A stretch of DNA of 64,000 nucleotides from an uncultured delta proteobacterium. Lineage in GTDB: Bacteria; Desulfobacterota; Binatia; UBA9968. The stretch is taken from NCBI GenBank assembly GCA_963816145.1, contig CAWFJP010000017.1:251435-315434 (forward strand), in the 5' to 3' direction. The notes under the pieces were generated by a model. It was not told the DNA's origin. It saw only the letters and a program-made list of their open reading frames with translations, and did not search any database. This document shows, in pieces, positions 7,206-62,170 of the stretch. The first letter of the stretch is position 1. Each line of letters begins with the position of its first letter. The translations under genes and the position numbers were made by a program.

Positions 7206-7438
7206 ATTGCGGCCGGCGGTTTGTGCCACTGATCGGAGACGGTGATTCATGACATGTGCATTTAGAGTTTTTTCTTTGGCCGCCCTTCTCTTGCTCGTCG
7301 CTTAACCGACAATTAGCCCAACTCCTCGGCGGTCACCCAAAAGCGGCCATTTATGGTCACCTCAAAACCGGCCATTAAATAACGGTAGAAGCGTGCGAGA
7401 CATTGACGGCGCAGCGAAGCCTTTTAGGCTCGCGCGCC

Positions 7439-9801: not shown

Positions 9802-9920
9802 AACTATCCTGTCTCACGCGCTCCCGGTTAAATGGCCGGTTTTGAAGTGACCATAAATGACCGCTTTTGAGGTGACCATTGAGGCCCACGGCCCTCTCGC
9901 GACTTTTCACCCGTTAAATA

Positions 9921-11041: not shown

Positions 11042-12709
11042 ATGTGTGGGATTGCGGGAATAGTTGATCCGGCGCTCGACCGAGATCAGGGCAAGATTCT
11101 ACTGGAACGGATGCTAGGATCTATCCGGCACCGTGGACCCGACAATTCGTCCGTATGGATAGATCCCCCGGTGATGCTGGGACATAACCGCCTGAGCATC
11201 ATCGATCTCAGCGACGCGGCCAACCAGCCGATGGAATACGGAGATCTGGTGATCGTCTACAATGGCGAGATTTACAACTACGTTGAAATCAAAAAAGAGT
11301 TGATTGAGAAAGGTTACCGCTTTCGGACGAGTTCCGACACAGAAGTCATCCTCGCGGCGTACCAAGAGTGGGGTGCGGAAAGCGTCAAGCATTTCGTCGG
11401 AATGTGGGCTTTTGCGATCTGGGACAGAGCAAAAAGAGAGCTCTTCTGCTCGCGAGACCGGTTTGGGATCAAGCCGTTCTACTATATTCATGCGGGTGAC
11501 AAATTCTATTTTGGCTCCGAGTACAAGCCGTTAAAACTGTCGCCAATTTTCAGGAATAGTTTTAACCAAGCACAAATCGCTAGGGGCTTGTTGGAAGCGA
11601 TGGTGTCCTACCAAAATGAAACCTATTTTGCTTGTTTGAAAATCCTCCCACAGCGAACCAATTTGCTCTTCAAGGACGGCAGAGTAAAGGTAACCGAGTA
11701 CTGGGATATCGATCCTTCAAGAAAATTTCACGCAGCCTTTGAGGAAAAGAAAGACCGGTTTTGCGAACTCTTTCGAGACAGCACCAAAGTGCATATGCGG
11801 AGTGATGTCGAAGTCGGCGCATGCCTGAGCGGCGGCCTCGACAGCTCGTCGATCGCTTCGGTAGTGGCTACGGATTACCGGGAGGTCCCTTTAAAGACAT
11901 TTAGTATTTATTACGAGGGCGAAGGCCAAATGGATGAGCGCCCTTGGATTAGAGAAGTCCTGAGAATGTATCCTCAAATAGAGCCCGTCTTTTATAGCCC
12001 GTCAGAAGAGGATGTCAGAGAATTTTTCGACCATGCAGTCTTAATAAACGACGCCCCATTACTAAGTTCGTTGCCTCTGTCTCTTTACTTTGTGATGAAA
12101 GTCGCCAAGCACCATGGAATGAAAGTTATGCTAGACGGCCAAGGTGCCGATGAATATCTCGGCGGATATTCACCCTCGAGCGAAAAGCAGGTCGACTGGA
12201 TTTCCTTAAGTTCGGGCAAGAGACCTGAAACTTCTATCAAAACAGTTGGGGGATCTCGTTCGAAGCAATATTTATATCACTTGATGTTTGCGATGCCTTT
12301 GCCGGAGCTTCTGCACTACGGGGATCGTATGTCCATGGCTTTCTCCATAGAGTGCCGGGTACCGTTTTTGGACCATCGGTTGGTGGAATTCGTTCATTCG
12401 TTGGATGACGAGGACATCGTGGCGGAAGGGGAAACAAAATACATACTGCGGAAATCACTATACGGGTATCTGCCTCGGGGAATCGTGAATAGAATAAAAA
12501 AACAGCCATTTTTTGGAGGGGAGGCCGCGATGTGGCTACGCGGGCCTTTAAGGTTTTTGACCGAGCCGCCATTGAACTTGGATCGGCTTCGCATCTTAAA
12601 CTCCGAAAAAATAGGCGGGCTGTTGGACAAGTTTAAGAGCGGCGACAACAGCGATGTGAGGTTTGTCTGGAGACTCGCGTTAACCAATTATTGGCTGAGC
12701 CAACAATAG
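11042..12709 (+). CDS. asnB: Asparagine synthase (glutamine-hydrolysing)-like amidotransferase
   Basis: MCGI N-terminus, HRGPD, RLSIID, NGEIYN, LSGGLDSS, DGQGADE, RVPFLDH. Confidence 0.9.
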   Translation: MCGIAGIVDPALDRDQGKILLERMLGSIRHRGPDNSSVWIDPPVMLGHNRLSIIDLSDAANQPMEYGDLVIVYNGEIYNYVEIKKELIEKGYRFRTSSDTEVILAAYQEWGAESVKHFVGMWAFAIWDRAKRELFCSRDRFGIKPFYYIHAGDKFYFGSEYKPLKLSPIFRNSFNQAQIARGLLEAMVSYQNETYFACLKILPQRTNLLFKDGRVKVTEYWDIDPSRKFHAAFEEKKDRFCELFRDSTKVHMRSDVEVGACLSGGLDSSSIASVVATDYREVPLKTFSIYYEGEGQMDERPWIREVLRMYPQIEPVFYSPSEEDVREFFDHAVLINDAPLLSSLPLSLYFVMKVAKHHGMKVMLDGQGADEYLGGYSPSSEKQVDWISLSSGKRPETSIKTVGGSRSKQYLYHLMFAMPLPELLHYGDRMSMAFSIECRVPFLDHRLVEFVHSLDDEDIVAEGETKYILRKSLYGYLPRGIVNRIKKQPFFGGEAAMWLRGPLRFLTEPPLNLDRLRILNSEKIGGLLDKFKSGDNSDVRFVWRLALTNYWLSQQ

Positions 12710-12808
12710 CCGGAGTTTTTGTGGTCGCATGATTCACCGTTCATAACCGCCGATCTCAATTTATCCGTATTGAGGCAAACCATTGCTTTAAATCATGTAA
12801 ATTACGCA

Positions 12809-15800
12809 ATGACAACTGAGAACCCAAAGTCTGCTCCACAATCATCGAACTGGCAAACTCCGAAAGATGGATCGAAACGCCAGAAGGAGTCGCTGCAGGA
12901 GCTGTTACATCACGCGTGGTTCTATTCAGCTTTCTACCGGGAGCTTTGGGCTAATCATGGAATCAAAGAGAGCTCTCTGTCGGAACTGACACTCCGTGAC
13001 TTACCTTTCGTTTCGAAGAAGCTCATGATGGATAACTTCGACGCAGTGGTGACCGATTCACGGCTGCGAAAACATGAAATAGAGGAGTGGATTCAGAATA
13101 ATCCCGACCCGGCGGCCGATTACCGTGATGGGGTGATTGTTGTCCATAGTTCCGGTTCTTCGGGAGAGATGGGTATTTACCTCTATGATCGACGAGCTTG
13201 GTACTTCGCGAACGCTACCATTGCGAATCGTGTACCAACCATTACGAATTGTGCGTCAGATCGAACAAGGGTCGCGATTTATCTCGCCTCCCACGGCCAT
13301 TTTGCAGGTGTCTCGACGGCTGTGCGGATGCCGTCGCATATATACAACGTGCAGATTCATTCTGTGCTTCATGACACTGATCGCGTGGTGGAGCAACTTA
13401 ACGCTTTTGGACCACATCGAATCGGTGGTTATTCAAGCAGCGTGGCGACCTTGGCGGAGTTGGCTCTTCAAGGGAGTCTTCAAATCCATCCAAAGACGAT
13501 ATTGGTCAGTGGTGACAAACTTACCGCTCAGATGGAGCAAAGTATTTGGGACGCGTGGAACCTGCCTGTTCACGTCCTGTACAGCGCGTCAGAATCCTTG
13601 TGCATAGCCGTCAAAACCCCAGGGACAGATGAGATGACCGTGTTGGATGAGCTGAATTCGCTCGAGGTCCTTGATCATCAAGATGAACCGGTTTTGCCCG
13701 GCACTGCGGGACGAGCAGTTCTGACGAATCTATATAACTACACGTTTCCAATAATTCGATATGAGCTAGGAGATTATTTGACTGTGGGGTCTACAAACGG
13801 AACTGCCGGTGTCACAAGCCTCCGAGATATCGAAGGCCGGCTCCGGGATGCGTTGCCTGTCGTTTTGGGGAATGGAAATTATGACACGATCCACCCCATC
13901 GCGTTGGCGGAATTTTTTGTACCGGGTCTTACGAGGATTCAATTTGTTTCGGTGCTCCCGGAATACGTTCTAATAAACTATGTGGCGAGTAGTGATCTTA
14001 GCGGATTAATCCAAACGGAGTTTCAACGAATACTCCGAATTAAGGGCGCCACGCAAACCCGCTTCGAGGTTCACCGAAAAGAACATATTCCGAACGATCC
14101 GAAAACCGGAAAATTTGCGCTGGTTAAGATCGAACCTCCAAAAGCTGATGTAAAGTCTCTCGGAAACCATTCTGAAACGGACTTGGTTACCTCGATGGCG
14201 CTGAATTCCTCGATGAACGTTGTCCTATCCAATCAAAACGAGATCGGGCCGTCGATCATCGACCGCTTTGAAATGCAGGTGGCAAAGTGTCCTGAGCGCA
14301 TTGCCGTGAAGACGAAACGCATCCGCCTCACTTACACGGAATTGAATGAGGCGGCCAATCGTTTGGCACGAGCGATTGTTGGAAAGCGCGGCCAAGAGCA
14401 AGAGCCGATTGCGCTATTGCTAGAGAACGGCGCGCCAATCATGACGGCGATCTTCGGCGTGTTGAAGGCGGGTAAGCTCTACATGCCGCTGGACCCATCG
14501 TGTCCCCAAGCGCGGATCACGGCGATGCTGGAGGATTCTCAGGCACAACTGATCATTACCAACGCTCGCCATCACACTCTGGCCCATGAATCAGCGGGAA
14601 ACGGCGTTCAGGTTATAAACATCGACGATCTCGATTCGAGCGTCTCCACTGAGAACTTACAACTTCCGCTTTCGGCGGATACGCTTGCCTGCATACTTTA
14701 CACTTCTGGCTCGACCGGTGAACCGAAGGGTGTGGTCCACAGTCATCGTAATATTCTGCACAAAACGATGGAGTACACCAGGGCGCTGCATTTTTGTATG
14801 GAGGACAAGATCGCGCTTATGAGCCCGTGCACTTTTAGTTTGTCGGTGGGCTTCATCTTCGGAGCTTTGCTAAACGGCGCATGTCTCTATCCAGTCGATG
14901 TCAGAGGGGAAGGACTTGTGCATCTCGCGGATTGGTTCCGCCAGGAAGAGGTTACCGTTTACAACTCGGTGCCGACGGTGTTTCGCAATTTCGCCGATAC
15001 GCTACCGCGGCAAGAAAACCTCCCCAGATTGCGACTCATCCATCTCGGCGGAGAGCCGGTGACGGCTAAGGATGTGGCGCTGTATAAGAAACGTTTCGCC
15101 CCGGACTGTGTTCTGTTGCATCATGTGGGTTCCAATGAAACCGGCACGATCGCCCAATGTTTCATCGATAAGAAGACCCCGGTTCACGGCAATACCGCGC
15201 CTGCTGGCCAAGCGGCTCAGGATAGCAAAATCCTGGTGCTGGACGACGACGGTAAACCGCTGGGATTTAACCGTGTTGGCGAGATCGCTGTGCGAAGCCG
15301 TTACCTCGCCGTGGGATATTGGCGCAGGCCGGAGCTTACACGTGCCGCTTTTCTGCCGGATCCCGCGGGAAGTGATGAGAGGATCTATCGCACGGGCGAT
15401 TTGGGTCTTCTCCGACCTGATGGCTCGCTGGAACACTATGGCCGCAAAGACTTTCAGGTGAAGATCAGGGGCCAGAGAGTCGAAGTCATCGAGATCGATA
15501 TGGCCCTAGCTAAGCATGGCGCAGTCAAAGAGGCTGTGACCGTGGCGCGCGAGGATGGACAGGGCGATAAGTACCTGGTGGCCTATGTCGTTTCGTCTAG
15601 CGAGCCCGCGGTGACGAGTAAAGAGTTGCGGTTATTTCTGCAGCAGCGGTTGCCGGAGTACATGGTGCCTTCGTCAATTGTGTTCCTGGATGCTATGCCG
15701 CTCACGCCCAATGGAAAATTGGATCGCCAGGCCTTGCCGGCGCCGTCCATGGAGAGAGTCGATGACGCGCCGGGGCGTGCTTTACCCAAAGACACGTTGG

Positions 15801-16135
15801 AACGTCGCTTGGCGGAGATCTGGGAAATGCTTTTGGGCGTTCACCCGGTGGGGATCCACGATAACTTTTTCGACATCGGTGGTCACTCGCTGTTGCTCAT
15901 TAAATTGCACGGCGAATTACAAGCAGCATTCGGAGTCGATATCCCGATGATTCAGTTGTTCCGATCGCCCACTATCAGCGCCCAGGCTGAATACTTGAGT
16001 CAAGCGACAATCCCGCTTCCGCCGCAAAAAAGCAACGAGTCGTCCGCGCAAGAGCGCGCGGCGCAGCAAAGACAGCGGGGACTGCAAGCCTTGGCCCAAC
16101 GGAGCGCTAGCACACGCGTCACGTCGAATAGCTGA
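12809..16135 (+). CDS. NRPS loading protein: phenylacetate-CoA-ligase/F390-synthetase-like domain fused to A-T
   Basis: N-terminal domain with LPFVSK, HSSGSSG, YSASE, LTNLYNYTFPIIRYELGD; then an A domain (LTYTEL, YTSGSTGEPKG, YRTGDL, QVKIRG, NGKLDR) and T domain (GGHSL). Start could be 12719. Confidence 0.85.
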   Translation: MTTENPKSAPQSSNWQTPKDGSKRQKESLQELLHHAWFYSAFYRELWANHGIKESSLSELTLRDLPFVSKKLMMDNFDAVVTDSRLRKHEIEEWIQNNPDPAADYRDGVIVVHSSGSSGEMGIYLYDRRAWYFANATIANRVPTITNCASDRTRVAIYLASHGHFAGVSTAVRMPSHIYNVQIHSVLHDTDRVVEQLNAFGPHRIGGYSSSVATLAELALQGSLQIHPKTILVSGDKLTAQMEQSIWDAWNLPVHVLYSASESLCIAVKTPGTDEMTVLDELNSLEVLDHQDEPVLPGTAGRAVLTNLYNYTFPIIRYELGDYLTVGSTNGTAGVTSLRDIEGRLRDALPVVLGNGNYDTIHPIALAEFFVPGLTRIQFVSVLPEYVLINYVASSDLSGLIQTEFQRILRIKGATQTRFEVHRKEHIPNDPKTGKFALVKIEPPKADVKSLGNHSETDLVTSMALNSSMNVVLSNQNEIGPSIIDRFEMQVAKCPERIAVKTKRIRLTYTELNEAANRLARAIVGKRGQEQEPIALLLENGAPIMTAIFGVLKAGKLYMPLDPSCPQARITAMLEDSQAQLIITNARHHTLAHESAGNGVQVINIDDLDSSVSTENLQLPLSADTLACILYTSGSTGEPKGVVHSHRNILHKTMEYTRALHFCMEDKIALMSPCTFSLSVGFIFGALLNGACLYPVDVRGEGLVHLADWFRQEEVTVYNSVPTVFRNFADTLPRQENLPRLRLIHLGGEPVTAKDVALYKKRFAPDCVLLHHVGSNETGTIAQCFIDKKTPVHGNTAPAGQAAQDSKILVLDDDGKPLGFNRVGEIAVRSRYLAVGYWRRPELTRAAFLPDPAGSDERIYRTGDLGLLRPDGSLEHYGRKDFQVKIRGQRVEVIEIDMALAKHGAVKEAVTVAREDGQGDKYLVAYVVSSSEPAVTSKELRLFLQQRLPEYMVPSSIVFLDAMPLTPNGKLDRQALPAPSMERVDDAPGRALPKDTLERRLAEIWEMLLGVHPVGIHDNFFDIGGHSLLLIKLHGELQAAFGVDIPMIQLFRSPTISAQAEYLSQATIPLPPQKSNESSAQERAAQQRQRGLQALAQRSASTRVTSNS

Positions 16136-16166
16136 TCAGGTTTCGTTTGGTGGGGTAACGAAAGAA

Positions 16167-19100
16167 ATGAGCGAATCAAATACTTTCCATAGTTCCTTCT
16201 CTTCCAACGGGATGGAAATCGCCATTATCGGCATGGCCGGCCGGTTTCCGGGTGCGCGGAATCTCGAGCAGTACTGGCGGAACCTGCGCGACGGAGTAGA
16301 GTCGGTGTCGTTTTTCTCTAATGAAGAGTTGATGGCTGCCGGTGTAGGCCGGGAATTGCTCGAGGATCGCAACTATGTGAGGGCAGGTCTTGTTCTAGAT
16401 GACGTGGATCTTTTCGATGCGCCGTTTTTTGGCTTGTCTCCGCGCGAGGCAACGATCCTGGATCCGCAGCAGCGCTTCTTCTTGGAATGCGCCTGGGAAG
16501 CACTGGAACAGGCGGGCTATAGTCCGGACAGCCTAGAAAGACTGACCGGGGTCTATGGCGGTGTAGGTCAGAACAACTACCTTCGAGTCAACCTGCTCGC
16601 AAACCGGCAAAATGGCGAGGGCTTTCAAGAGTACGAGTTAGGAATTGCCAATGAGAAGGATTTCCTGACGACGCGAGTGGCTTATAAACTGAATCTTCGC
16701 GGTCCGAGCGTGACGATTCAAACAGCCTGTTCTACTTCTCTGGTCGCCGTCCACCAAGCCTGTCAGAGTTTGCTGAGCTATCAGTGCGACATGGCGCTAG
16801 CGGGAGGCGTGTCGATTTCGCTGCCGCAGAGGCAGGGATATCTTTTCCAGTCGGGTTGGATCTCCTCGCCTGACGGCCATTGCCGCGCCTTTGACGCCAA
16901 CGCTGCGGGCACCATCTTCGGGAGCGGCGCGGCGATCGTTGTGTTGAAACGATTGGCGGATGCTATCACTGACGGTGACAGGATTTACGCGGTGATCAAA
17001 GGCTCAGCGATCAATAACGACGGTTCTCATAAGATCGGCTACACTGCGCCAAGCGGCGCCGGGCAGGCTGAGGTCATCGCTATGGCGCAGGCGATGGCCG
17101 AAGTGGCGCCGGCGACAGTGAGCTACATCGAGACGCATGGGACGGGAACACAACTGGGCGATCCGATCGAGATCGAAGCACTGAACCAGGTTTTTCGCCA
17201 GAGCACCGAACGTAAAAGTTTCTGCGCCATCGGGTCGGTCAAAACCAATATTGGACACGTTGATGTCGCGGCTGGCATCGCGGGTTTGATTAAAACGGTT
17301 CTCGCGCTCAAGCATGAACAGTTGCCTCCAAGTCTGAATTATGAAAAGCCCAATCCTCAAATCGATTTCGCCAATAGCCCGTTTTACGTAAACACGGAAT
17401 TAAGGGATTGGAGGACCAATGGCCATCCGCGTCGTGCCGGCGTGAGCTCGTTTGGCGTCGGAGGCACTAACGCCCATTTGGTTCTCGAAGAAGGTCCCTC
17501 CGAAGAGCCTTCGACCAAGTCGCGCCCCTGGCAGTTGTTATTGCTGTCCGCGCGGACCGAAACAGCCCTCGATGCTATGACCGTTAACTTAGCTAAGCAT
17601 CTGTACGATCATCCCCACCTGAACCTTGCCGACGTCGGACATACATTGCAGGTTGGCCGCAAGGTTTTCACTCAGCGCCGCATGATTGTCTGTCGCGACG
17701 TGGCCGATGCCGTCGAGGTTCTGATGAGACGAGATTCGGAGCGCGTCTTTTCCGGGGCACACGAGCGTCACGACCGACCAGTGGCGTTCATGTTTACCGG
17801 GCAGGGTTCTCAGTACTCCGGCATGGCCCAAGGTCTCTATGAATCGGAACCGACCTTCCGCGCCCAGATCGATGCTTGCTGCGAACTTCTTAAGTCCCAT
17901 TTGGGCCTGGATCTGCGCGAGGTGATTTATCCGAATGGGTTGAGGTTTGAGAGTCGAGAGGCGAGGCGCAAAGGACAAAAGACGGTCGACAATGGATCAG
18001 TTAACCAGACCTGGCTGACGCAGCCGGCACTGTTCGTCGTCGAATACGCGCTGGCAAAACTATGGATCGAATGGGGAGTCGAGCCGCGAGCGATGATTGG
18101 TCACAGCATCGGCGAGTACGTCGCGGCCTGTCTGGCCGGCGTTTTTTCACTTGAAGACGCGCTGGCGCTGGTAGCTGCTCGCGGCCGGCTGATTCAGGAA
18201 CTGCCGGGCGGCGCGATGCTGAGCGTTGCTCTGGACGAGAGACAGGTTCGTTCCCTGTTGGGCGCGCAGCTTTCTATCGCGGCCGTTAACGCACCATCGA
18301 CATGCGTTGTCTCCGGTCCCACCGGCGACGTGGAAGCGCTGGAGAGGCGGCTCGCAGATCAGAGTACGGCTTTTCAGCGTCTTCACACCTCGCACGGTTT
18401 TCACTCGGCGCTGATGGATCCAATACTGGAGACTTTCACACGCCTGGTCCAACAGATCAAGCTTCATGGACCTACGATTCCTTTTGTTTCCAATGTCAGC
18501 GGAAGGTGGATCACAGCGGAGGAAGCGACCGACGCGAGTTATTGGGCACGCCATTTGCGGCAAACTGTGCGCTTCGGGGAGGGCGTGCGTGAGTTGATAA
18601 AAGGGCAAAATCTGGCGCTGCTCGAAGTTGGCCCCGGACAGACGCTGACTACCCTGGTGCGGCGTAATATGGTGACTTCGCGCGAGCGCGCTCTCTCGTC
18701 GCTACGCCAGCCGCAGAGCAATAATTCGGACGTAGAGTTCATCTTGAAAACACTAGGCCGGCTTTGGCTGCTGGGCGTACCGGTCAAATGGAAAGGGTTC
18801 TATTCGCATGAACGCCGCCGCCGTATTCCGTTGCCGACCTATCCCTTTGAGCGCCAGCGCTACTGGGTGGAGCCGGAGAAATCTTCGGTCGAGAATAAAA
18901 AGCAACCGGATTTGGTAAGTAAAAAGCCTGACGTTGCGGATTGGTTTTATGTACCGGTGTGGAAGCAAGCCCCGCCATTAGGCGTGCCTAGAATCGGCGA
19001 GAGTTCCGCGCAGTCTCGATGGCTTGCTTTCGTCGACGCTGACGGGCTCGGTGATCGAATCGTGCAACGGTTGCGCGAGCAAAATCAGCATGTCGTGACC

Positions 19101-21875: not shown

Positions 21876-21889
21876 TTTTTGACGAATTT

Positions 21890-25138: not shown

Positions 25139-25158
25139 CCGCGAGGAGGCAAACCCAG

Positions 25159-28100
25159 GTGAAAAATCCAACAAGCAAAAACCATCAAAACGGTATTGAG
25201 ATTGCCATTATCGGTATGGCGGCACGCTTTCCTGGAGCGGCCAATGTCAAGCAGTTTTGGCGGAATCTCCATGATGGCGTCGAGTCTCTTACGCTCTTTT
25301 CTGATGCCGAATTGCGATCCTCGGGAGTAGACCCCGCGCTGATCGCCAATCCCGACTACGTCAAAGCCAAGCCAATACTTGAAGACACGGATTCATTCGA
25401 CGCGGCTTTTTTTGGCTTCAACCCCAAGGAAGCCGAAATCATGGATCCGCAGCACCGAATTTTTCTAGAATGCGCCTGGGAGGCGCTCGAAAACGCTGGT
25501 TATGATTCGGAAAAGTACAAGGGATTGATAGGGGTGTATGCCGGCGCCAGTATGAACAGCTACCTTTTGAATCTTGTTGCGAATCACTCTTCCAAAGGGC
25601 CTCCCGACTATTACCAAATGCTCGTCGGTAACGAAAAGGATTTCCTCCCCACTCGGGTTTCCTACAAGCTCAATCTTAAGGGACCGAGCCTCAACGTTCA
25701 AAGCGCATGCTCCACTTCGCTGGTTGCTGTGCACTTGGCTTGCCAAGGTCTTCTCAGCGGGGAGTGCGACATGGTCTTAGCCGGCGGTGTCTCGATCCAA
25801 GTGCCGCAAAGAGACGGGTACCTTTACCAGGAGGGTATGATTCGTTCTCCCGATGGTCGTTGCCGCGCCTTCGATGCCAGAGCGCAGGGCACGAACTTCG
25901 GCGAAGGCGTTGGCGTTGTTGTTCTCAAGCGGCTCGCAGACGCGGAATCCGACGGAGATCACATCGAGGCGGTGATCAAAGGTTCCGCCATCAACAATGA
26001 TGGCGCATACAAGGTTGGCTACGCAGCGCCAAGTGTTGACGGCCAAGCGAAGGTGATCAGGGCCGCTCAGTCCGTTGCAGAGGTCGAACCTGACACATTG
26101 AGTTATATTGAAGCCCATGGGACCGGAACTGAAATCGGTGATCCGATCGAGATTGCCGCGCTAACAAAGGCCTTTCGTGCCAGCACCCAGAGGAAGAATT
26201 TTTGCGCCGTCGGTTCAGTTAAAACTAATTTCGGACACCTCGATGCGGCAGCTGGTATCGCGGGGTTGATCAAGACCGCTTTAGCCTTGAAGCACAAATT
26301 GCTGCCCGCAAGCATTCATTTTGAGCGGCCTAATGCGAAGATTGATTTCGACAACAGTCCATTCTACGTCAACGCTAAGCTCGCGCAATGGCCATCGGGT
26401 CCGACCCCTCGACGCGCTGGCGTAAGCTCGTTTGGTATTGGCGGAACCAATGCCCATGTTATTCTGGAAGAGGGCCCTATTGCGGAAGCCTCCGGGCCCG
26501 CACGACCCTGGCAGTTGCTCGTGCTGTCAGCCAAAACGACCACAGCATTAGAAGCTGCGGCGAGAAACCTCGCTACACATTTAAGGGACCATCCTGATTT
26601 CACGCTCGCTGATGTTGCATACACGTTGCAGGTTGGCCGGCGGCGGTTCGGGCATCGCCGAGCCGTCGTTTGCCGCGATGCGAGAAACGCAGTCGACATG
26701 TTGGAATCGTCCGATCCCAAGCTCGTCATGACGGTTCACAGTGAACAGGAAGACCGGCCGGTGGCGTTCATGTTTCCGGGACAAGGTGCCCAGTATGTAA
26801 ACATGGCTGTGTCTCTGTATCGCGAAGAAGCGATTTTCCGGAAGACTGTCGACGAGTGCGCGCAAGCGCTTGTCCCGCATCTAGAAGTCGATGTGCGCGA
26901 GATTCTCTTTCCCGAGCCGGCCCAAACGGCCGCGGCGGAACGCAAGATCACGGAGACCTACATCACTCAACCGACTCTATTTGTCATTGAATATGCGCTA
27001 GCTCAGTTGTGGCTGAATTGGGGCATTAGGCCGCGGGCGGTAATCGGTCACAGCCTCGGAGAATATGTGGCTGCCTGTCTCGCCGGCGTGATGACCCGGG
27101 ACGACGCCCTGTCCCTTCTGGCGGGACGGGCGCGGCTCATGCAACAACTCCCTCCTGGCGGCATGCTCGCCGTGCGTCTGGCTGCAAAGGACTTGAAGTC
27201 GCTTCTTGACGCACGCTTGTCGATTGCAGCGGTGAACACTACTGCCCTGACAGTGATTTCGGGGCCTTACGAAGCGCTCGAGTGCCTAGAGCTTGAACTC
27301 GCGGAACGAGGTGTCGGGTATCGCCGGTTGCCGACATCCCATGCGTTTCACTCCGACATGATGAATCCGGTACTCGAGCCGTTCGCGAAACTAACGGAAA
27401 AGATCAGGCTTAGACCGCCGCAAATTGGTTGGGTTTCCTGTCTGACCGGGGATTGGATTACAGAGTCGCAAGCCATCGATCCGACTTACTGGGTGCGCCA
27501 ATTGCGAGAAACGGTGCGCTTTACCGAGGGCGTGGGGAAACTTCTCAAGGATCATCAATCGGCGCTGCTTGAGGTCGGCCCTGGTACTAGTTTAGCAAAC
27601 TTCGCCAAGCAGCACCCCGACAGGACCAAGGAGCATGTAGTTCTTTCCTCCTCAAGCTCGGCTCGAGAAGCGGGTCTCGACATCGAATCGATGCTCCACT
27701 CGCTCGGCGGGCTCTGGCTGGCCGGGGCCGCAGTGGATTGGCAACAAGTGCATGGTGGCGAACCGCGCCGCAGGCTACCCCTACCGACCTATCCGTTCGA
27801 ACGGCAGCGTTATTGGATCGATACCCCGACCACCGCCGATCATGAACCCGAAAATGCGGCCTCCGCGGCCGATAACGGAGATCTATCAAACCACCGCGAC
27901 ATCGAGATCGAAACGGGAGTATCCGTCATGAAGTCTAATCTAGCCGAATCCGCCTCATCGGGGCAGCAGATTGAGTTGCAATCCAGGCTGCGCGCAGTTC
28001 TCTCCGAACTTTCAGGTATCGAAGCTGCCGCACTGGACAGCTCCGCGAATTTTGCGGAACTGGGATTCGATTCCCTGTTTCTGACGCAGGCCAGTGGTGC

Positions 28101-31100
28101 GATCCAGCGGTCCTTCAACGTTAAAGTATCGTTTCTCCAGTTGCTCGAAGATCTCTCAACCATCGAAGCTCTTGCGGCTCACTTGGATCGCGTCATGCCA
28201 CGTGAGCAAAAAGCAGAGACCGAAAGCCTTATTGTTGCGTCGCAGCCAACGACACAAAAACCGCCTGCGGAGCCACTTGCCGCCGCGCAGAATTTGTGTG
28301 CCACGAGCAACGGATTGCCGACAGATGGACTTGGGCGGGGCTCTGATGCGTTGGAACGAATCCTGAACCGGCACCTTGATCTCATGTCGCGTCAGTTAGA
28401 CCTGCTGCGAAATGGCTCCCGATCCATCGATGGAATATCGTTCTCGCTGGAAGAAATGTCCAGAGTGAATGGCCACTCGGAGTCAGTACCGGTTGCCGGT
28501 CGGGCTCCCGCCATTCCGGTTTCGCCCGCCGTGGCGGGCCGGTCGCAGCTGCTGGAGCGAACCGACTCGACAGCATTCGGTCCTTACAGCGCGATAAAAA
28601 AACACGCGCAAGAGGCTCTCGCTCCGCGCCAGCAAGAAAACCTCGATAGCTTTATCTCGCGGTACACAAAGCGGACTCAGGAATCGAAGCGGTATACGCA
28701 AACCCACCGGGCTCATCTAGCCGATCCACGATCGGTCGCTGGTTTCCGTTCACTGTGGAAGGAGTTGACCTATCCGATTGTCGTTGCACGCTCTTCGGGA
28801 TGCAAACTTTGGGATTTGGACGGCAACGAATATGTCGACTTGGTGAACGGTTTCGGCTCGAGTCTGTTCGGCTATGCTCCTCAATTTGTGACCGAAGCGA
28901 TCGAAGCACAACTGAAGACAGGCATGGAAATCGGTCCTCAGTCGCTTCTGGCGGGCAAAGTTGCTGAGCTAGTATGCGAAATGACTGGCATGGAGCGCGC
29001 CGCATTCTGCAACACGGGCTCCGAAGCCGTCCTGGCGGCGTTGCGCGTTGCTAGGACCGTGACCGGACGAGATAAGATTGCCCTTTTCTCAGGCTCCTAT
29101 CACGGCATCTTCGACGAAGTCCTGGTGCGATCGGTGGCCGGCGGCAGGGAAGCGCGCTCAATGCCGATTGCGCCAGGAATCGTCGAGAGCATGGTTAAGA
29201 ACGTGCTTGTGTTAGATTACGGCAACCCAGAGTCACTGAGAATTCTGAAGGAGCGCTGTGATGAAATCGCCGCCGTGTTGGTGGAACCGGTTCAGAGTCG
29301 CCGGCCAGAATTGCAGCCAACGGAATTTCTGCACGAGCTTCGTGACCTGACAAAGGCTTCGGGCATCGCGCTTATCTTCGACGAAATGATTACCGGGTTT
29401 CGCAGTCACCCAGGAGGCGTGCAGACTCTGTTTGGCGTGAAGGCGGATTTGGCGACATACGGAAAAGTGATCGGTGGCGGACTACCGATTGGCGTCGTCG
29501 CTGGTACTGCAGCATTCATGGACGCACTCGACGGCGGGACGTGGAGCTACGGGGATGCGTCGTTTCCCACCGTCGACGTTACTTTTTTTGCCGGAACGTT
29601 CGTGCGCCATCCGTTAGCGCTGGCAGCTGCCCGTGCGGTCCTGGATCATCTCAAGCGAAGCGGTCCGACCCTTCAGGCCGGCTTGAATGCTAAGACCGCC
29701 GAGCTGGTAAAATCCTTGAATGCCTATATTGAGGAACTCGGCGCGCCCATGCGAGTCACGCATTTTAGCTCATGGCTGAGCATCCATTTCACCGAAAATC
29801 TTCCACTGACGAGCCTGTTCTTCGCCTTCATGAGAGCAAAGGGAGTGCACCTATTGGAAGGGCGCCCCTGCTTCCTGACGACCGCGCATACAGACGAGGA
29901 TCTAGAGCACGTGGTAGGGGCCTTCAGGGAAAGCGTCTCAGAAATGCAGGAAGCCGGATTTTTGCCTGCGCCGCAAAATGCACGGCAACAGTCCGTCTCT
30001 CGTCAGGTGGCTGAAATTTCCTCATGCAAAGATCCTGAATACGTTCCGTTGTCCTTCACCCAGCAGCAAATATGGTTCCTGGAACAATTAATGCCTGGAA
30101 GCGCGGTTTATAATCTTGCCATCGGCTATCGTTTCAAAGGGTCGCTCAGTGTGCCAGCTCTAGAAGCTGGTTTGAATGAAATCGTTCGACGTCACAAATC
30201 GTTACGGACCACAATCTCCGTGATCGATGAAGTGCCAGTGCAAGTGATTGCGCCGTCAATAAAAATCTCTCTGCCCACGCATGATTTGACGACGGTTCCT
30301 CAATTCGAACGTGAAGCACGGGCGATGCAGATAGCTTCTGAAGAGGCGCGCGATCCGTTCAATTTAGTCGAAGGCCCGCTAATGCGCTCGACCGTGTTGA
30401 AATTGAGCGAGAACGAGTACGTTCTTCTAGTTACCTGTCATCATCTTATCACTGATGGATTGTCGCAGGACGTTTTCTTAAGGGAGTTGGCCCATCTCTA
30501 TGGAACGTTCTCTACTGGAAACCCTTCGCTTCTTCCTGAAATTTCATTCCAATATGCCGACTTCGTTCGTTGCCAGGAGGAGAAGCTGCGCGGAGATGTG
30601 CTGGAGCAGCGGTTGTTATATTGGAAGAGTCAGCTTGAGGGGCTCCCAGAACTGCTCGCTTTGCCGACCGATAGGCGGCGACCGGCCGTTCGGACCTATC
30701 ACGGTGCCACTCAATCGAAGGTGGTATCCAAGGAGCTTACCAAGAAGCTGAAGACTCTCAGCCGGAACGAACGGGTTACGCTGTATATGACGTTGCTGGC
30801 GGCCTTCAAGGTACTATTATGCCGCTTAACAGGGCAGGCAGACATGGTAGTCGGTTCACCCATCGCGGGCCGCGATCAAGTAGAAGTTGAGGGGCTAATC
30901 GGGCTGTTCGTCAACACCATGATATTGCGCACAGACCTGTCAGGCGATCCGACCTTTCGCGAATTGCTGCAAAGGGTGAGGGAATCAACACTCGGGGCCT
31001 ACCGCAACCAGGAAGTGCCATTTGACAAGTTGATGGGAGAACTTAAGTCAGAACGGCATCTCAGTCACAATACCCTGTTCCAAGTGATGTTTGTTCACGA

Positions 31101-34100
31101 GAAAGCCGACTCTGAGCAGTCACTCAAATTTCCTGGCCTTGATTTCCGTGTGTTTGTCATTGAGACAGGGACGAGCATGTTTGACTTAACCCTCTCTATA
31201 ATGGAGAGCCCTGAAAGTCTGAACTGCTCTTTTACGTATAACACGGACTTGTTTGATGACACTACTATCACGCGAATCATGGACCACTTCCAAACCGTGT
31301 TGGAAGGTATCGTCGCCAACCCTGGGGAGCGGTTCTCGGCGCTGCCGCTTTTGAAACAGGCCGAGCGGCAACGGCTCGTGGTGCAGTGGAACGACACCAG
31401 GATTGAGTACCCTCAGGACAAATTCATTCACCAACTATTCGAGGAACAGGCAAAGCGCAGGCCGAATGGAGTCGGAGTGCTGTTTGAAGGGCAGCGGCTC
31501 ACGTACCAAGAACTCGATTTACGAGCCAATCGGCTGGCCCACTATCTCGGAAAACGGGGCGTTGGTCCGGAGGTGTTGGTGGGGATCTGCATGGAGCGCT
31601 CGTTGGAGATGATTGTGGCGCTTCTCGGGGTTCTCAAAGCGGGCGCAGCATATGTGCCTCTGGACCCTCACTATCCAAAAGAACGGCTGGCGTTTATGTT
31701 AGAAGACGCGGGCGCTTCGGTGCTCATTACTCGGAGTAGTCTGGTGTCGCAGTTACCCGGGGTTAACGTCGACGGGCGACCGACGATGGACAAGGATAAT
31801 CAACACCGCTCTGCGGCCATCGGTGGACCGTATTCCATGGTTTATCTGGACACGGACTGGAACGCCATTATTCAAGAGAGTGGGGAGAATCCCGCGGTAG
31901 CGGTGGATGCGGAAAATCTGGCCTATGTGATCTACACGTCAGGTTCCACGGGGAGGCCTAAAAGAGTAGGGGTCACGCATCGGTCACTAGCTAACTATGC
32001 CCAGTTTGCCTCGGAGATGTTCGAAATCAGTAATAGCGATCGGGTTCTGCAATTCGCCTCGCTCAGCTTCGATACCTCGACGGAAGAGATTTTCCCATGC
32101 CTGATAAAAGGAGCGACGCTGGTCCTGCGATCGGATGCCATGATCGATAGCGCCGCATCATTTTTGCGGCATTGCAGCGAGTGGCATGTCAATGTGCTGG
32201 ATCTACCGACGGCTTACTGGCATGAGTTGACCGACGGAATGGTTCTTGAGGGATTGGCGCTCCCGGGTTGTGTGCGCTTGGTGATCATCGGTGGTGAACG
32301 AGCGGCACCAAAGCAGTTGATGAATTGGCGTCATGCCGTCCGCGACCATGCGCGACTATTGAACACCTATGGTCCGACTGAGGCGACGGTGGCCGCAACG
32401 GTATGGGAGTTGAGCGTAACCGATTCCGAAGATGAGTCTTTGAGAGAAGTTCCCATTGGCCGGCCGGTGGCGAACACGCAAATTTACATTCTCGATTCCC
32501 ATCTCGAACCAGTGCCGATCGGGGTTGCAGGAGACCTTTATATCGGTGGAGCGGGTCTGGCCAGGGGCTATTTGAACCACCCGAATCAGACGGCGGAAAA
32601 GTTTATTCCCAATCCGTTCGGCGAACGGGTGGGCGAGCGATTGTACTGCACGGGCGATCTGGCGCGTTATCTCGGTGACGGTAATATCGAGTTTCTTGGG
32701 CGGAGCGATCGTCAAGTTAAGGTGCGGGGATACCGTATCGAGTTAGGAGAGATAGAAGCCGTGCTTGGCCGCCACTCACAGGTGCGCCAAGCGGTCGTCT
32801 TGTTGCGGCAAGACGCTCCCGGTGATCATTCGACTTCAGTCGGGGTAAATAAACGGCTGGTCGCCTATATTGTGGCTGCGCAACCCCCCGCCCCTTCTAC
32901 GAGCGATTTGCGGAGCTTTCTCCAAGCGACGCTGCCCGACTACATGATTCCGTCGGTTTTCGTATTTTTGGATTCTTTGCCGATCACATCGAGCGGCAAA
33001 GTCGACCATCAGATGCTGCCTGAGCCTGATCAAAGTGGACCCGATCTCGAAGGCAACTTCATCACGGCGCGCAACCCTGTAGAGGAGGTGCTGGCGACGA
33101 TTTGGGCCAACATCTTGGGCATTGGGCGAGTAGGGATTTACGACAATTTCTTCGACCTCGGTGGCCATTCTCTTTTGGCCACCCAGGTTATCTCACGCAT
33201 CCGCAAAGTATTCGGCGTGGAAATTCCTTTGCGCAGCTTGTTTGAGAGTCCCTCGGTGGCCGCATTGGCGGCACGGATCGACGAGGCTCTTCGTCACCAG
33301 CAGGGGTTGCAAACCGTTCCAATTCTACCGATGCCACGAGAAGGCGATCTTGAGCTTTCCTTTGCCCAACAGCGGCTTTGGTTTTTGGACCGGTTCGACC
33401 CCCATAGCTCGGTATACAACATACGGAGCGGATTGCGTTTAAGGGGTCCGCTCGATGTCGCCGCATTGGAACGAAGCTTAAACGAGATCATATGCCGGCA
33501 TGAAACGTTGCGCAGCACGTTCAAGGATATCCGCGGAGTACCCCGGCAAACCATCGAGCAATCGGGATCTTTGAGTTTGCCTGTAATCGATCTTTCGGAT
33601 CGACCAGAGGGCTGTCGGGAAAGCGAAGCCGGGCGGCTGGCCGAGGAGGAAGGCCGACTTCCGTTCGATCTCACTTCGGATCTGATGTTGCGCGGCAAAG
33701 TGCTGCGTCTGGGCGAACGAGATCATATTTTGCTTTTGACCTTGCATCATATAGCCGCGGACGGCTGGTCGATGGGCATTTTGTTCCGCGAGATTTCGGC
33801 ATTATATGAAGCCTTTACAACCGGCAAACCATCGTCGCTTGCCGAAGTGACAATTCAGTATGCAGACTTCGCCCATTGGCAAAGGCAGTGGCTTCAAGGC
33901 GAAATGCTGCAAACTCAGCTTTCCTATTGGAAAGCAAAACTTGAGAATTTGCCCGTCTTAGATTTGCCTACTGATTATTCCCGGCCGGCCGTGCAGGGCT
34001 ACCGAGGCGCTAGCGAGTCGGTAACCATTAGCGGGACGACAGTCAGTGCTCTTCGAGAGCTGAGCCGGAAGGAAGGCGCAACGCTTTTTATGACGCTGTT

Positions 34101-36615
34101 GGCGGCGTTCAAGATATTATTATACCGCTACACAGGGCAGCAAGACATCGTCATCGGTACTCCTATTGCGGGTCGCAACCGTTCCGAAATAGAGGGATTG
34201 ATTGGGTTCTTTGTCAACACGCTGGTGCTGCGCACTGACCTTTCCGGCAACTGTACTTTTCGTGAGTTGCTGGGACGGGTGCGGGAAACGGCCTTGGGCG
34301 CCTACGCGCACCAGGATCTGCCCTTCGAGAAACTAGTCGAGGAGCTGCAGCCGGAACGCGACTTAAGTCGTAACCCTTTGTTTCAGATATTTTTCAACAT
34401 GCTCCATGGAGGAAGTAGCGACTTAGAACTATCAGGGCTGGAAATAGAAAGCCTCACATCCTTCAACTCGGAATCCAAATTTGATTTGACCTTATACGTC
34501 GGGGAACACGATGACAGCGCGCATCTGAAAATGGTTTACAACACCGACCTCTTTGAATCAGATACAATCAATCGGCTGCTGCGGCATTATTGCACGCTGC
34601 TTGAAGGAATCGCGGCGGACCCCGACCGTATTATCATGCATTACCCTTTGTTGACGCAAGACGAACGGCGGGGACTCGCCACGGGAAAGAATGCTGTTGG
34701 CCCGGCGAACGCGTTTGTGGAATTCAAGAGAGAAGAAATCGAGCAATCGATTGCCGCACGGTTCGAGCAACAGGCAACGCTTTTTCGGGAAAAAACGGCA
34801 GTGAAGAGCCAAGAGCAGCGGTGGACCTACGGCGAGTTGAATCGCAGAGCCAATCAGATCGCCAGAGCGCTACTGCAGCAGTGCGGCGCCGGGGAAGAAA
34901 GAGTTGTGTTATTGTTCGAACATGGAGCGCCGATGATTGCCGCAATCCTGGGAGTGCTTAAAAGTGCGAAGGCATATGTTCCGCTGGAGCCCAGTCATCC
35001 AACAGAACGGCTTAGCTACATGATGGAGGACAGCGAGAGCACAGTGATTCTCAGTGATCGGAGAAACCTAGAGTTGGCCCGAGAACTTTCCCGCGGGAGC
35101 CGAGCGGTGATCAACATCGAGGAGATCGATCCCGCGACATCGGCAGAGAATCTCGGCCTGACTGTCTCGCCGGAAGCTATGGCCTATATTCTTTACACCT
35201 CAGGCTCAACGGGACAGCCCAAAGGGGTGATGCAAAACCATCGCAACGTGCTGCACCACGCACGCTGCTATACCAACAGCCTACATATCCATGCTGATGA
35301 CCGACTCACGTTATTTTCCGCTTACAGTCACGATGCGGCGGTGATCGATATTTTTTCCGCTTTATTAAATGGCGCCACGCTTTATCCTTGGAAGGTTTCG
35401 GAGCAAGGCTTGATTGGATTGCCAGAGTGGTTGGAAGGGCAAGAAGTCACAGTCTACCATTCAACGCCGTCCCTATATCAGAGTTTGCTTGACACGCTCG
35501 ATTCGGGCGTGCGCTTTTCGAACGTGCGCGCAGTCGTTTTGGGGGGAGAAAAGGCAGCCAACAGACACTTTGAGGGCTTTTGGGGTCATTTTTCTCCGCA
35601 TGCTATCTTCTGCAATCTATACGGCTCAACGGAATCTTCCTTTAATTTACTTTTTTCGAGCGGTGCCCACACGCCGACCAGGCGGAACGCAATTTCCATC
35701 GGGTATCCCGTGCAGGACACCGAAGTGGTATTATTGAACGAAGATGGGACTGTGGGAGAGATATACGGGGAGATCGGGATTCGTAGTGAGCATGTGGCGC
35801 TTGGGTATTGGCACAATCCACAGTTGACCGACGCTGTCTTTTTGCCGGATTCAGAGCAGGAAACAAGGCGTCTTTACCGCACGGGGGACATCGGGCGGCT
35901 GCTGCCCGATGGAAGCATCGGGTTTTTGGGGCGTCGGGATAGCCAGGTCAAAATTCGAGGATACCGCATCGAGTTGGGCGAGGTGGAGGCAGTTCTGACT
36001 CAGCACCCGACTGTCAAACAAGCGGTGGTTGCGATTCGGGGAGAAGCGAACCGAGCGTCCTCAACACGGCCTCGCTTCGGAGAACTGTTAGTGGGGTACG
36101 TGGTGATGCAGCTGGGGGAGATTTTGAATGCAGATAAACTGCGAGATCATTTAAAGCAAAAGGTGCCCGAATACATGGTGCCGGCGGTATTCGTGGGCCT
36201 TGACACTCTGCCGCTAATGCCCAACGGCAAGGTCAACCGGCGCACGTTGCCATTGCCGGAGGACCAAGCCGGAGAGATCGAGAGCGTTTTTGTCGCGCCA
36301 CGCACGCCGATCGAGGATAGCGTGGCGGAGATCTGGCGGGAAGTCCTTGATCTCGAGCGCATCGGTATCATGGATAATTTCTTTGCATTAGGCGGACACT
36401 CGCTGCTGGCGTTGCAAGTCATCTATCTTGTGGGGAAGCAGTTTAATATTGAAGTGGCGCTGCGGATCTTGTTTGAAAAGCCAACGATCGAGCAATTTGC
36501 CGGGTTTATTTTTGATCGCTTGGTCAGGAACGAACATGGAGATTTGGATAGCCTCTTAAGTGAAATCGAAGCGCTTTCCGACGAGATGGCGCCGTCGCTG
36601 GTCGGCGATCAGTGA
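25159..36615 (+). CDS. Hybrid PKS-NRPS KS-AT-ACP-aminotransferase-C-A-T-C-A-T (no TE)
   Basis: KS SACSTS; AT GHSLG/HAFHS; ACP GFDSL; class III aminotransferase (NTGSEA, IFDEMITGFR, TYGKVIGGG); C HHLITDG; A code about DTEDIGTVAK (Lys/Arg-like); T; C HHIAADG; A; T. GTG start after GAGGAGG (track start 25135). Confidence 0.93.
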   Translation: MKNPTSKNHQNGIEIAIIGMAARFPGAANVKQFWRNLHDGVESLTLFSDAELRSSGVDPALIANPDYVKAKPILEDTDSFDAAFFGFNPKEAEIMDPQHRIFLECAWEALENAGYDSEKYKGLIGVYAGASMNSYLLNLVANHSSKGPPDYYQMLVGNEKDFLPTRVSYKLNLKGPSLNVQSACSTSLVAVHLACQGLLSGECDMVLAGGVSIQVPQRDGYLYQEGMIRSPDGRCRAFDARAQGTNFGEGVGVVVLKRLADAESDGDHIEAVIKGSAINNDGAYKVGYAAPSVDGQAKVIRAAQSVAEVEPDTLSYIEAHGTGTEIGDPIEIAALTKAFRASTQRKNFCAVGSVKTNFGHLDAAAGIAGLIKTALALKHKLLPASIHFERPNAKIDFDNSPFYVNAKLAQWPSGPTPRRAGVSSFGIGGTNAHVILEEGPIAEASGPARPWQLLVLSAKTTTALEAAARNLATHLRDHPDFTLADVAYTLQVGRRRFGHRRAVVCRDARNAVDMLESSDPKLVMTVHSEQEDRPVAFMFPGQGAQYVNMAVSLYREEAIFRKTVDECAQALVPHLEVDVREILFPEPAQTAAAERKITETYITQPTLFVIEYALAQLWLNWGIRPRAVIGHSLGEYVAACLAGVMTRDDALSLLAGRARLMQQLPPGGMLAVRLAAKDLKSLLDARLSIAAVNTTALTVISGPYEALECLELELAERGVGYRRLPTSHAFHSDMMNPVLEPFAKLTEKIRLRPPQIGWVSCLTGDWITESQAIDPTYWVRQLRETVRFTEGVGKLLKDHQSALLEVGPGTSLANFAKQHPDRTKEHVVLSSSSSAREAGLDIESMLHSLGGLWLAGAAVDWQQVHGGEPRRRLPLPTYPFERQRYWIDTPTTADHEPENAASAADNGDLSNHRDIEIETGVSVMKSNLAESASSGQQIELQSRLRAVLSELSGIEAAALDSSANFAELGFDSLFLTQASGAIQRSFNVKVSFLQLLEDLSTIEALAAHLDRVMPREQKAETESLIVASQPTTQKPPAEPLAAAQNLCATSNGLPTDGLGRGSDALERILNRHLDLMSRQLDLLRNGSRSIDGISFSLEEMSRVNGHSESVPVAGRAPAIPVSPAVAGRSQLLERTDSTAFGPYSAIKKHAQEALAPRQQENLDSFISRYTKRTQESKRYTQTHRAHLADPRSVAGFRSLWKELTYPIVVARSSGCKLWDLDGNEYVDLVNGFGSSLFGYAPQFVTEAIEAQLKTGMEIGPQSLLAGKVAELVCEMTGMERAAFCNTGSEAVLAALRVARTVTGRDKIALFSGSYHGIFDEVLVRSVAGGREARSMPIAPGIVESMVKNVLVLDYGNPESLRILKERCDEIAAVLVEPVQSRRPELQPTEFLHELRDLTKASGIALIFDEMITGFRSHPGGVQTLFGVKADLATYGKVIGGGLPIGVVAGTAAFMDALDGGTWSYGDASFPTVDVTFFAGTFVRHPLALAAARAVLDHLKRSGPTLQAGLNAKTAELVKSLNAYIEELGAPMRVTHFSSWLSIHFTENLPLTSLFFAFMRAKGVHLLEGRPCFLTTAHTDEDLEHVVGAFRESVSEMQEAGFLPAPQNARQQSVSRQVAEISSCKDPEYVPLSFTQQQIWFLEQLMPGSAVYNLAIGYRFKGSLSVPALEAGLNEIVRRHKSLRTTISVIDEVPVQVIAPSIKISLPTHDLTTVPQFEREARAMQIASEEARDPFNLVEGPLMRSTVLKLSENEYVLLVTCHHLITDGLSQDVFLRELAHLYGTFSTGNPSLLPEISFQYADFVRCQEEKLRGDVLEQRLLYWKSQLEGLPELLALPTDRRRPAVRTYHGATQSKVVSKELTKKLKTLSRNERVTLYMTLLAAFKVLLCRLTGQADMVVGSPIAGRDQVEVEGLIGLFVNTMILRTDLSGDPTFRELLQRVRESTLGAYRNQEVPFDKLMGELKSERHLSHNTLFQVMFVHEKADSEQSLKFPGLDFRVFVIETGTSMFDLTLSIMESPESLNCSFTYNTDLFDDTTITRIMDHFQTVLEGIVANPGERFSALPLLKQAERQRLVVQWNDTRIEYPQDKFIHQLFEEQAKRRPNGVGVLFEGQRLTYQELDLRANRLAHYLGKRGVGPEVLVGICMERSLEMIVALLGVLKAGAAYVPLDPHYPKERLAFMLEDAGASVLITRSSLVSQLPGVNVDGRPTMDKDNQHRSAAIGGPYSMVYLDTDWNAIIQESGENPAVAVDAENLAYVIYTSGSTGRPKRVGVTHRSLANYAQFASEMFEISNSDRVLQFASLSFDTSTEEIFPCLIKGATLVLRSDAMIDSAASFLRHCSEWHVNVLDLPTAYWHELTDGMVLEGLALPGCVRLVIIGGERAAPKQLMNWRHAVRDHARLLNTYGPTEATVAATVWELSVTDSEDESLREVPIGRPVANTQIYILDSHLEPVPIGVAGDLYIGGAGLARGYLNHPNQTAEKFIPNPFGERVGERLYCTGDLARYLGDGNIEFLGRSDRQVKVRGYRIELGEIEAVLGRHSQVRQAVVLLRQDAPGDHSTSVGVNKRLVAYIVAAQPPAPSTSDLRSFLQATLPDYMIPSVFVFLDSLPITSSGKVDHQMLPEPDQSGPDLEGNFITARNPVEEVLATIWANILGIGRVGIYDNFFDLGGHSLLATQVISRIRKVFGVEIPLRSLFESPSVAALAARIDEALRHQQGLQTVPILPMPREGDLELSFAQQRLWFLDRFDPHSSVYNIRSGLRLRGPLDVAALERSLNEIICRHETLRSTFKDIRGVPRQTIEQSGSLSLPVIDLSDRPEGCRESEAGRLAEEEGRLPFDLTSDLMLRGKVLRLGERDHILLLTLHHIAADGWSMGILFREISALYEAFTTGKPSSLAEVTIQYADFAHWQRQWLQGEMLQTQLSYWKAKLENLPVLDLPTDYSRPAVQGYRGASESVTISGTTVSALRELSRKEGATLFMTLLAAFKILLYRYTGQQDIVIGTPIAGRNRSEIEGLIGFFVNTLVLRTDLSGNCTFRELLGRVRETALGAYAHQDLPFEKLVEELQPERDLSRNPLFQIFFNMLHGGSSDLELSGLEIESLTSFNSESKFDLTLYVGEHDDSAHLKMVYNTDLFESDTINRLLRHYCTLLEGIAADPDRIIMHYPLLTQDERRGLATGKNAVGPANAFVEFKREEIEQSIAARFEQQATLFREKTAVKSQEQRWTYGELNRRANQIARALLQQCGAGEERVVLLFEHGAPMIAAILGVLKSAKAYVPLEPSHPTERLSYMMEDSESTVILSDRRNLELARELSRGSRAVINIEEIDPATSAENLGLTVSPEAMAYILYTSGSTGQPKGVMQNHRNVLHHARCYTNSLHIHADDRLTLFSAYSHDAAVIDIFSALLNGATLYPWKVSEQGLIGLPEWLEGQEVTVYHSTPSLYQSLLDTLDSGVRFSNVRAVVLGGEKAANRHFEGFWGHFSPHAIFCNLYGSTESSFNLLFSSGAHTPTRRNAISIGYPVQDTEVVLLNEDGTVGEIYGEIGIRSEHVALGYWHNPQLTDAVFLPDSEQETRRLYRTGDIGRLLPDGSIGFLGRRDSQVKIRGYRIELGEVEAVLTQHPTVKQAVVAIRGEANRASSTRPRFGELLVGYVVMQLGEILNADKLRDHLKQKVPEYMVPAVFVGLDTLPLMPNGKVNRRTLPLPEDQAGEIESVFVAPRTPIEDSVAEIWREVLDLERIGIMDNFFALGGHSLLALQVIYLVGKQFNIEVALRILFEKPTIEQFAGFIFDRLVRNEHGDLDSLLSEIEALSDEMAPSLVGDQ

Positions 36616-61915: not shown

Positions 61916-62170
61916 TCACCACGAAGGACACGAAGAGCACGAAGGCCGGAATTCTGGTCGCAAAGAGCGCAAAAAAGAAATCGGATTATCTCTCGCAAAG
62001 GCGCAAAGACGCCAAGGGAAGAGAAAAATGTCATTTCGACCGGAGGGAGAAATCTTTGTTAGATCACTCGCCCGGGCTCGGGATGACTGGCTTTGCCCGT
62101 CACTTAGCGTCTTTGCGCTCCTTCGACTTTGCTCAGGACATGCTTTGCGGGAGAAATCTCCGGATCCGAT
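61916..62170. repeat. Nested composite of short palindromic intergenic repeats
   Basis: CACGAAG x3; TCTCGCAAAGGCGCAAAGACGCCAAG pairs with CTTAGCGTCTTTGCGC...CTTTGCGGGAGA, enclosing GTCATTTCGA...GGGATGAC and interrupted by CTTCGACTTTGCTCAGG. Confidence 0.75.

Follow-up and report, generated by a model that had tools for sequence, protein, structure and literature searches.

The window, that is, the whole 64-kb stretch of DNA analysed, carries at 11042-36615 five same-strand open reading frames that, according to the ORF list, follow one another with almost no gaps (Table 1). Pfam, NCBIfam and our own domain mapping give the order of this operon as an AsnB-type amidotransferase, a PaaK-like-A-T protein whose A domain has no Asp235, a KS-AT-KR-DH-ACP module, a C-A(Ser)-T module and a KS-AT-ACP-AMT-C-A(Lys/Arg-like)-T-C-A(unassigned)-T hybrid of 3826 aa opening at 25135. 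The module order claimed by an earlier, sequence-only reading of the same DNA is borne out by this mapping; its inventory had left out AsnB and the PaaK-like domain and had not noticed that a TE is missing. Searches with Rfam and ARAGORN returned nothing within the operon.

Table 1. Positions of the operon's genes and domains and of neighbouring features in the window
Feature	Position	Strand	Basis or remarks
PAS/sigma-54 regulator	55-2106		
Type IV pilin-like gene, long membrane-protein gene, PMT_2 glycosyltransferase	2435-6112	+	N-methyl motif in the pilin-like gene; no Pfam match for the membrane-protein gene; all apparently frameshifted or truncated
IS21-family element	7338..9869	+	42-nt inverted repeats; frameshifted istA, istB
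Short ORF	9971-10282	-	No Pfam match; overlaps perfect 37-nt direct repeat (10174-10210, 10246-10282)
AsnB-type glutamine amidotransferase, 555 aa	11042..12709	+	Pfam Asn_synthase and GATase; N-terminal Cys, PP-loop
Starter protein ORF	12719..16135	+	First ATG at 12809
Starter PaaK/F390/CapK-like domain	12869-14128	+	
Starter A domain	14249-15724	+	
Starter T domain	15791-16006	+	
PKS module KS-AT(malonyl-type)-KR-DH-carrier	16167..21875	+	Pfam, motifs
PKS carrier with C-terminal tail, next C domain	21540-21960	+	GGDS motif in the carrier
NRPS module C-A(Ser)-T	21872..25138	+	Pfam, motifs, code DVWHISLVD
KS-AT-ACP of aminotransferase module	25135..28209	+	KS 25189-26469, AT 26755-27624, ACP 27985-28209
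Class III (GSAM-like) aminotransferase domain	28645..29964	+	PLP Asp1416, Lys1444
C-A(Lys/Arg-like)-T	30034..33288	+	Code DTEDIGTVA
Terminal C-A(unassigned)-T, acidic docking-like tail	33334..36615	+	Code DAIHVGLFN; without TE or R domain
SWIM/SNF2 helicase pair, PIN-like DUF5615 gene, two DDE transposases	36866-44986		Directly 3' of the operon
TPP riboswitch	47461-47568	-	Ahead of thiG/thiE; ordinary
One ORF with cysteine-rich CCG domains and nucleoside phosphorylase domain	56024-57844	+	Fusion or frameshift join; precedes MtnA-like and class II aldolase genes
HetI/Sfp-type PPTase	62129..62923	+	25.5 kb from the operon; GC3 0.69 vs 0.58-0.61 in the operon

Among the neighbouring genes, the long membrane protein upstream is presumably YfhO-like, and the short minus-strand ORF is one that we take to resemble the C-terminus of a tyrosine recombinase. 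The PPTase is a candidate activator in trans, located outside the operon among housekeeping-like genes, beyond methionine-salvage-like genes and an acyl-CoA ligase; a link between it and the cluster finds no support.

Catalytic motifs were found in both KS domains, both AT domains, the KR, the DH, all six carriers, all three C domains and the AMT, the KR Tyr/Asn and the DH Asp being taken from the translation; the motifs of both AT domains are of the malonyl type. The product of the first gene scored above the cut-off of TIGR01536, with the hydroxyamidotransferase 7ylz as its top PDB match, and we infer that it amidates the carboxylate of either the starter or the product. The PKS module would lengthen the chain by an enoyl C2 unit. 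Its carrier has the GGDS motif and tail that we take to be as in carriers preceding epimerase domains; the C domain that follows resembles the DCL type, a call likewise assumed from its signature, and these features are possibly the relic of a deleted E domain.

The A-domain codes read, in order, SLGNHGHTI (starter, no Asp235), DVWHISLVD, DTEDIGTVA and DAIHVGLFN, which by reference codes we take to denote a non-amino acid, Ser, a Lys/Arg-like residue and no assignable substrate, respectively; no paper on these codes was found in the open-access literature. The starter and last A domains fall in one uncharacterised clade, where Asp235 is absent in 83/88 N-terminal A domains of the starter clade and present in 35 of the 36 post-C members, a split consistent with a line that starts from an acid and ends in an amino acid. 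For the starter and last substrates, searches of the PDB, NCBIfam, the ESM Atlas and plasmids returned generic families only; the PaaK-like domain had weak PDB matches to PaaK-family ligases, and its roughly 60 homologous PaaK-A-T fusions include some with a TE and some with a PaaK domain downstream of T. Starter A domains without Asp235 form a large uncharacterised clade (P0241-P0360 and P0001-P0061) that is common in uncultured bacteria, with Arg or His in the pocket of many members and frequent fusion to a PaaK-like domain. The third A domain, whose top single-domain PDB match is ApnA A1, carries a Gly-to-Arg change in the A3 loop (1/393 motifs) that could impair it; because the relative P0241 (72% domain identity) has the same change, sequencing error or recent decay is an unlikely explanation.

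Judged by their sequences, both KS domains belong to the type that accepts aminoacyl donors. In a FastTree phylogeny of 74 KS domains, both fall outside the FAAL-fed group, and the KS of the AMT module lies nearest to those of a Thr-fed locus (L007) and of a Ser-fed KS-AT-KR module of Nostoc (L004). The KS domains of the window also contain the NEKD motif, which we read as the mark of an aminoacyl-accepting KS. PMC3315503 uses the term hybrid KS for domains that join an amino acid to an acyl extender.

The AMT likewise looks intact. A check for an inactive aminotransferase gave no sign of inactivity: the domain aligns end to end with the MycA AMT (PDB 6kfm, E 2e-142), matches 102/102 columns conserved in at least 95% of 91 AMT rows, and keeps both the PLP-binding Asp1416 and the Schiff-base Lys1444. 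According to the portion of PMC3870968 drawn on here, MycA is the characterised member of the group, with Gln as donor, and MxcL belongs to the same subfamily. Identity between the window AMT and six FAAL-fed AMTs is 49-57%, and in AMT trees that did not include McyE, a 91-row quick tree and a 28-row tree, a 99% branch sets these six apart from it; two free-standing AMTs join the FAAL-fed side in the 91-row tree, and forcing the window and FAAL-fed AMTs into monophyly costs 12.4 log units on the quick tree, with a borderline p-AU of 0.043. By architecture, we take the six to be a Ralstonia RmyA-type, a Bacillus iturin-type, three cyanobacterial and one Streptomyces AMT.

Furthermore, 24 columns separate 66 aminoacyl-fed AMT rows from the six FAAL-fed rows, and at 22 of these the window AMT has the aminoacyl-fed residue. 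Four residues, P1198, S1296, E1328 and R1491, are invariant in all 66 aminoacyl-fed rows, of which the GTDB part consists of the matches listed and was retrieved with patterns from the window AMT, leading to bias at three diagnostic positions (I1325, E1328 and R1567); five plasmid rows obtained by tblastn, where this bias is absent, also have the invariant E1328. By these residues and the NRPS carrier upstream of it, the AMT module belongs to a widespread, uncharacterised aminoacyl-fed family distinct from MycA/RmyA.

The best prediction, to which we assign a probability of roughly 0.65, is that the operon encodes a colinear hybrid line making a 3-amino-4-acylamino-5-hydroxypentanoyl unit, because the AMT looks intact and both KS domains appear to be aminoacyl-accepting. 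The PaaK-like/A/T protein would load a non-amino carboxylic acid, possibly amidated by the AsnB-type protein; the KS-AT-KR-DH module would use malonate to give an enoyl chain; and the C-A-T module would add L-Ser. The hybrid KS would then use malonate to lengthen the N-acyl-seryl unit; the PLP aminotransferase would next convert the 3-oxo group into an amine, with Gln as donor by analogy to MycA, resulting in the 3-amino-4-acylamino-5-hydroxypentanoyl chain, to which a basic residue and then one amino acid of unassigned type would be joined. As no TE is present, offloading is expected in trans: a protein encoded at another site would act through the acidic tail to remove the chain from the last T.

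The central step of the sequence-only reading, malonate extension of a seryl unit followed by transamination, is thereby retained, with support from the intact AMT, a KS nearest to Thr- and Ser-fed ones and an AMT grouping with aminoacyl-fed ones; its diamine needs amending, for it would be N4-acylated, with the C3 amine alone free. Two other routes were considered and set aside for the window: a HemL-like aminomutase role, because the serine nitrogen would be acylated beforehand, and an aminomalonyl route, as the window holds no such genes.

The distribution of such modules was surveyed in proteins and in GTDB genomes. Within the best 120 of 7375 homologous proteins (119 non-self), an NRPS carrier stands directly before KS-AT-ACP-AMT in one chain in 23 of the 119, the other non-self proteins begin at or within the AMT module, and none of the 119 has the architecture of the window's last protein. 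The GTDB scan gave at least 600 stretches, of which 585 were confirmed and 80 loci kept, with a best identity of 68% among the matches listed; 17 of the 80, with the upstream side not visible or no KS, were set aside, leaving 63 informative loci. Among these listed matches, an NRPS carrier lies upstream of KS-AT-ACP-AMT in 61/63, the upstream unit being A-T in 45, an A-less C-T in 13, a partial NRPS in 3, FAAL-type in 2 and a PKS module in none. The 45 A-T units of the listed loci comprise 31 Val-like, 3 Thr, 3 Pro, 1 Ser, 1 Gln and 6 other; Ser-fed AMT modules among the matches listed are those of L010 and, through an extra A-less C-T unit, L032.

The 13 A-less C-T units come after Thr or Ser, with epimerase motifs in 6/6 examined. 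Their loci, which span several phyla, show C-A(Thr/Ser)-T-E-C-T, in which the last, A-less module immediately precedes the AMT module, as in L013, L015, L016, L022, L027, L032, L035 and L037, and the same arrangement recurs in L038, L042, L043, L063 and L075.

The rarity that the earlier reading implied for the order aminoacyl-T to KS-AT-ACP-AMT was therefore rejected: among the listed loci (61/63) it is the normal state of the AMT group. Since NRPS-fed AMT modules occur in most GTDB loci and A-CP-KS-AT-CP-PLP1 layouts, with predicted monomers only, already appear in Table 2 of a 2013 paper (PMC3870968), the step is shared widely rather than peculiar to the window; the supplement of that paper covers 206 domains and may hold more cases. 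In the open-access literature, neither a characterised aminoacyl-fed AMT module nor its 3,4-diamino-acid product was found, and the earlier statement that no characterised cluster has this order met with no contrary match there. The accessible parts of papers on leptochelins, myxofacyclines, flavipulchrins, Pseudovibrio, Micromonospora and chitinimines were not relevant. The exact line of the window is without match in these searches; it represents a further variant of a known module type and belongs to an orphan family with many other members.

Chain release bears on how complete the operon is. No TE was detected in six frames of the 64-kb window with a profile built from 21 sequences, nor any R domain in the 64 kb. 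The TE-less end is conserved, because P0241 (77.5% identity), P0245, P0247 and P0259 end alike, with T and an acidic tail. In addition, among the 55 listed GTDB loci where 1.5 kb or more of sequence lies past the synthetase, 41 have no NRPS-type TE, and a few have other alpha/beta hydrolases. Operon GC3 is 0.58-0.61 vs 0.63-0.78 in 10 of the 11 downstream genes measured, the IS21-family element bounds the operon upstream and two DDE transposases lie 5-8 kb downstream; the low GC3 and the transposases on both sides suggest that the operon was acquired.

Flanked by mobile elements, the operon may be incomplete. A stranded fragment, its later modules and TE lost or elsewhere, so that the unit would be part of a larger product or no product would form, is nevertheless an unlikely reading: the missing TE, a tail resembling NRPS docking tails, the transposable elements on both sides and the GC3 difference are consistent with it, but the operon's 25 kb of ORFs are unbroken where neighbouring genes are frameshifted, and the TE-less ending is kept in P0241, at the identity given above, and in three more proteins.

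Another improbable possibility concerns the fate of the chain, which could be a substituent put on a surface glycan (exopolysaccharide, LPS or pilin glycan) instead of a released small molecule. Polysaccharide-biosynthesis genes lie in the flanks of 26 of the 66 GTDB loci among the matches listed, in six phyla (Pfam scan of 310/344 candidate ORFs in 66 loci; E cut-offs 1e-8 and 1e-10), a lower bound since some candidates are shadow frames, but a raw count in which about ten of the 26 positives are related Rhodanobacteraceae. Among annotated plasmid loci, that of Variovorax (L001) sits inside an EPS operon and those of Rhizobium (L088/L089) accompany a DegT-family aminotransferase and EPS genes, while AsnB and PaaK-like genes each occur near 3/80 of the listed loci. 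In the window itself, a pilin gene and a fragment of a PMT-type glycosyltransferase lie 5-8 kb ahead of the operon, but the IS21 element sits in between, and flippase, Wzy and sugar transferase are all absent near the operon. Moreover, EPS linkage shows no excess in TE-less loci (19/40 vs 6/14 TE-bearing among those listed), so that the notion that a TE-less end means glycan transfer was dropped, and L007, the closest relative among the matches listed, has a TE and no EPS gene.

Equally tentative is the broadest view, namely that aminoacyl-fed KS-AT-ACP-AMT lines constitute an undescribed cross-phylum pathway that makes 3,4-diamino acids and places cationic acyl-peptides onto surface glycans, the present operon being a serine version with an AsnB/PaaK-built enoyl cap and TE-less offload. 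Separately, a Nostoc sp. UHCC 0926 plasmid locus (L085, 19734-30879) has a TE-less starter-A-T and C-A(Thr)-T-C, with three glycosyltransferases immediately after them.

Least probable is that the AMT is bypassed or its intermediate diverted, leaving a 3-oxo unit or letting the seryl hydroxyl form a delta-lactone with early offload, which is chemically plausible, as a 5-hydroxy thioester should be able to lactonise, but sits poorly with a fully conserved AMT and two intact C domains downstream of it in the same protein.

If the 3-amino-4-acylamino-5-hydroxypentanoyl prediction is true, it would provide a rule that genome mining seems to lack, whereby an AMT module that receives its chain from an amino-acid carrier signals a 3,4-diamino acid, an amino analogue of statine; the four invariant AMT residues would help to flag such modules, and the enzyme would be worth considering as a catalyst to make protected vicinal diamines. 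Cultured relatives, including Dyella, Luteibacter, Variovorax, Rhizobium and Spirosoma, bring the AMT family within experimental reach, and its frequent occurrence beside polysaccharide genes hints that some glycan decorations may be made by NRPS/PKS lines.

Among described systems, the orphans of Pedobacter heparinus, Salinisphaera shabanensis and Thiorhodococcus drewsii likewise place an amino-acid module before KS-AT-ACP-AMT, but in Table 2 of PMC3870968 they appear as antiSMASH monomer predictions only, with no compound, no Ser case and no enoyl or PaaK-type starter. MycA (mycosubtilin), with its iturin-type relatives, and RmyA (ralsolamycin) share with the window KS-(AT)-ACP-AMT-C in one protein and a class III AMT whose PLP motifs agree; their substrates are fatty acids loaded by a FAAL, from which beta-amino fatty acids result, whereas the donor in the window would be an N-acyl-seryl carrier of the C-A(Ser)-T module, and the window's KS and AMT both fall outside their group. 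McyE (microcystin Adda) has the same KS-AT-ACP-AMT-C-A-T-C core as the window and receives a polyketide from a PKS module, yet none of the 63 informative GTDB loci among the matches listed has a PKS module directly upstream.

Vicinal diamines are also reached by other means. In guadinomine, a PKS-embedded AMT gives a vicinal diamine whose second amine comes from an aminomalonyl extender, whereas the ATs of the window are of malonyl type and no aminomalonyl-ACP genes are present among the 35 window ORFs scanned. A 1,2-diamine arises when an alpha-acylamino carbonyl is transaminated. The AMT subfamily of the window includes MxcL (myxochelin B) and anachelin-like enzymes, the MxcL placement following the consulted portion of PMC3870968. 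These enzymes are free-standing and act on a reductase-released aldehyde (compare L080 and L092), whereas the window AMT is embedded, would act on a carrier-bound ketone and has no R domain beside it.

A chemical parallel lies in the statine- and galantinic-acid-type modules of paenilamicin and anachelin, in which Ser-T is followed by KS-AT-KR. There, as in the Nostoc locus L004, serine and malonate are likewise joined by a hybrid KS after A-T, and the KR leads to a 3-hydroxyl group, whereas in the module of the window the AMT replaces the KR and would give a 3-amine.
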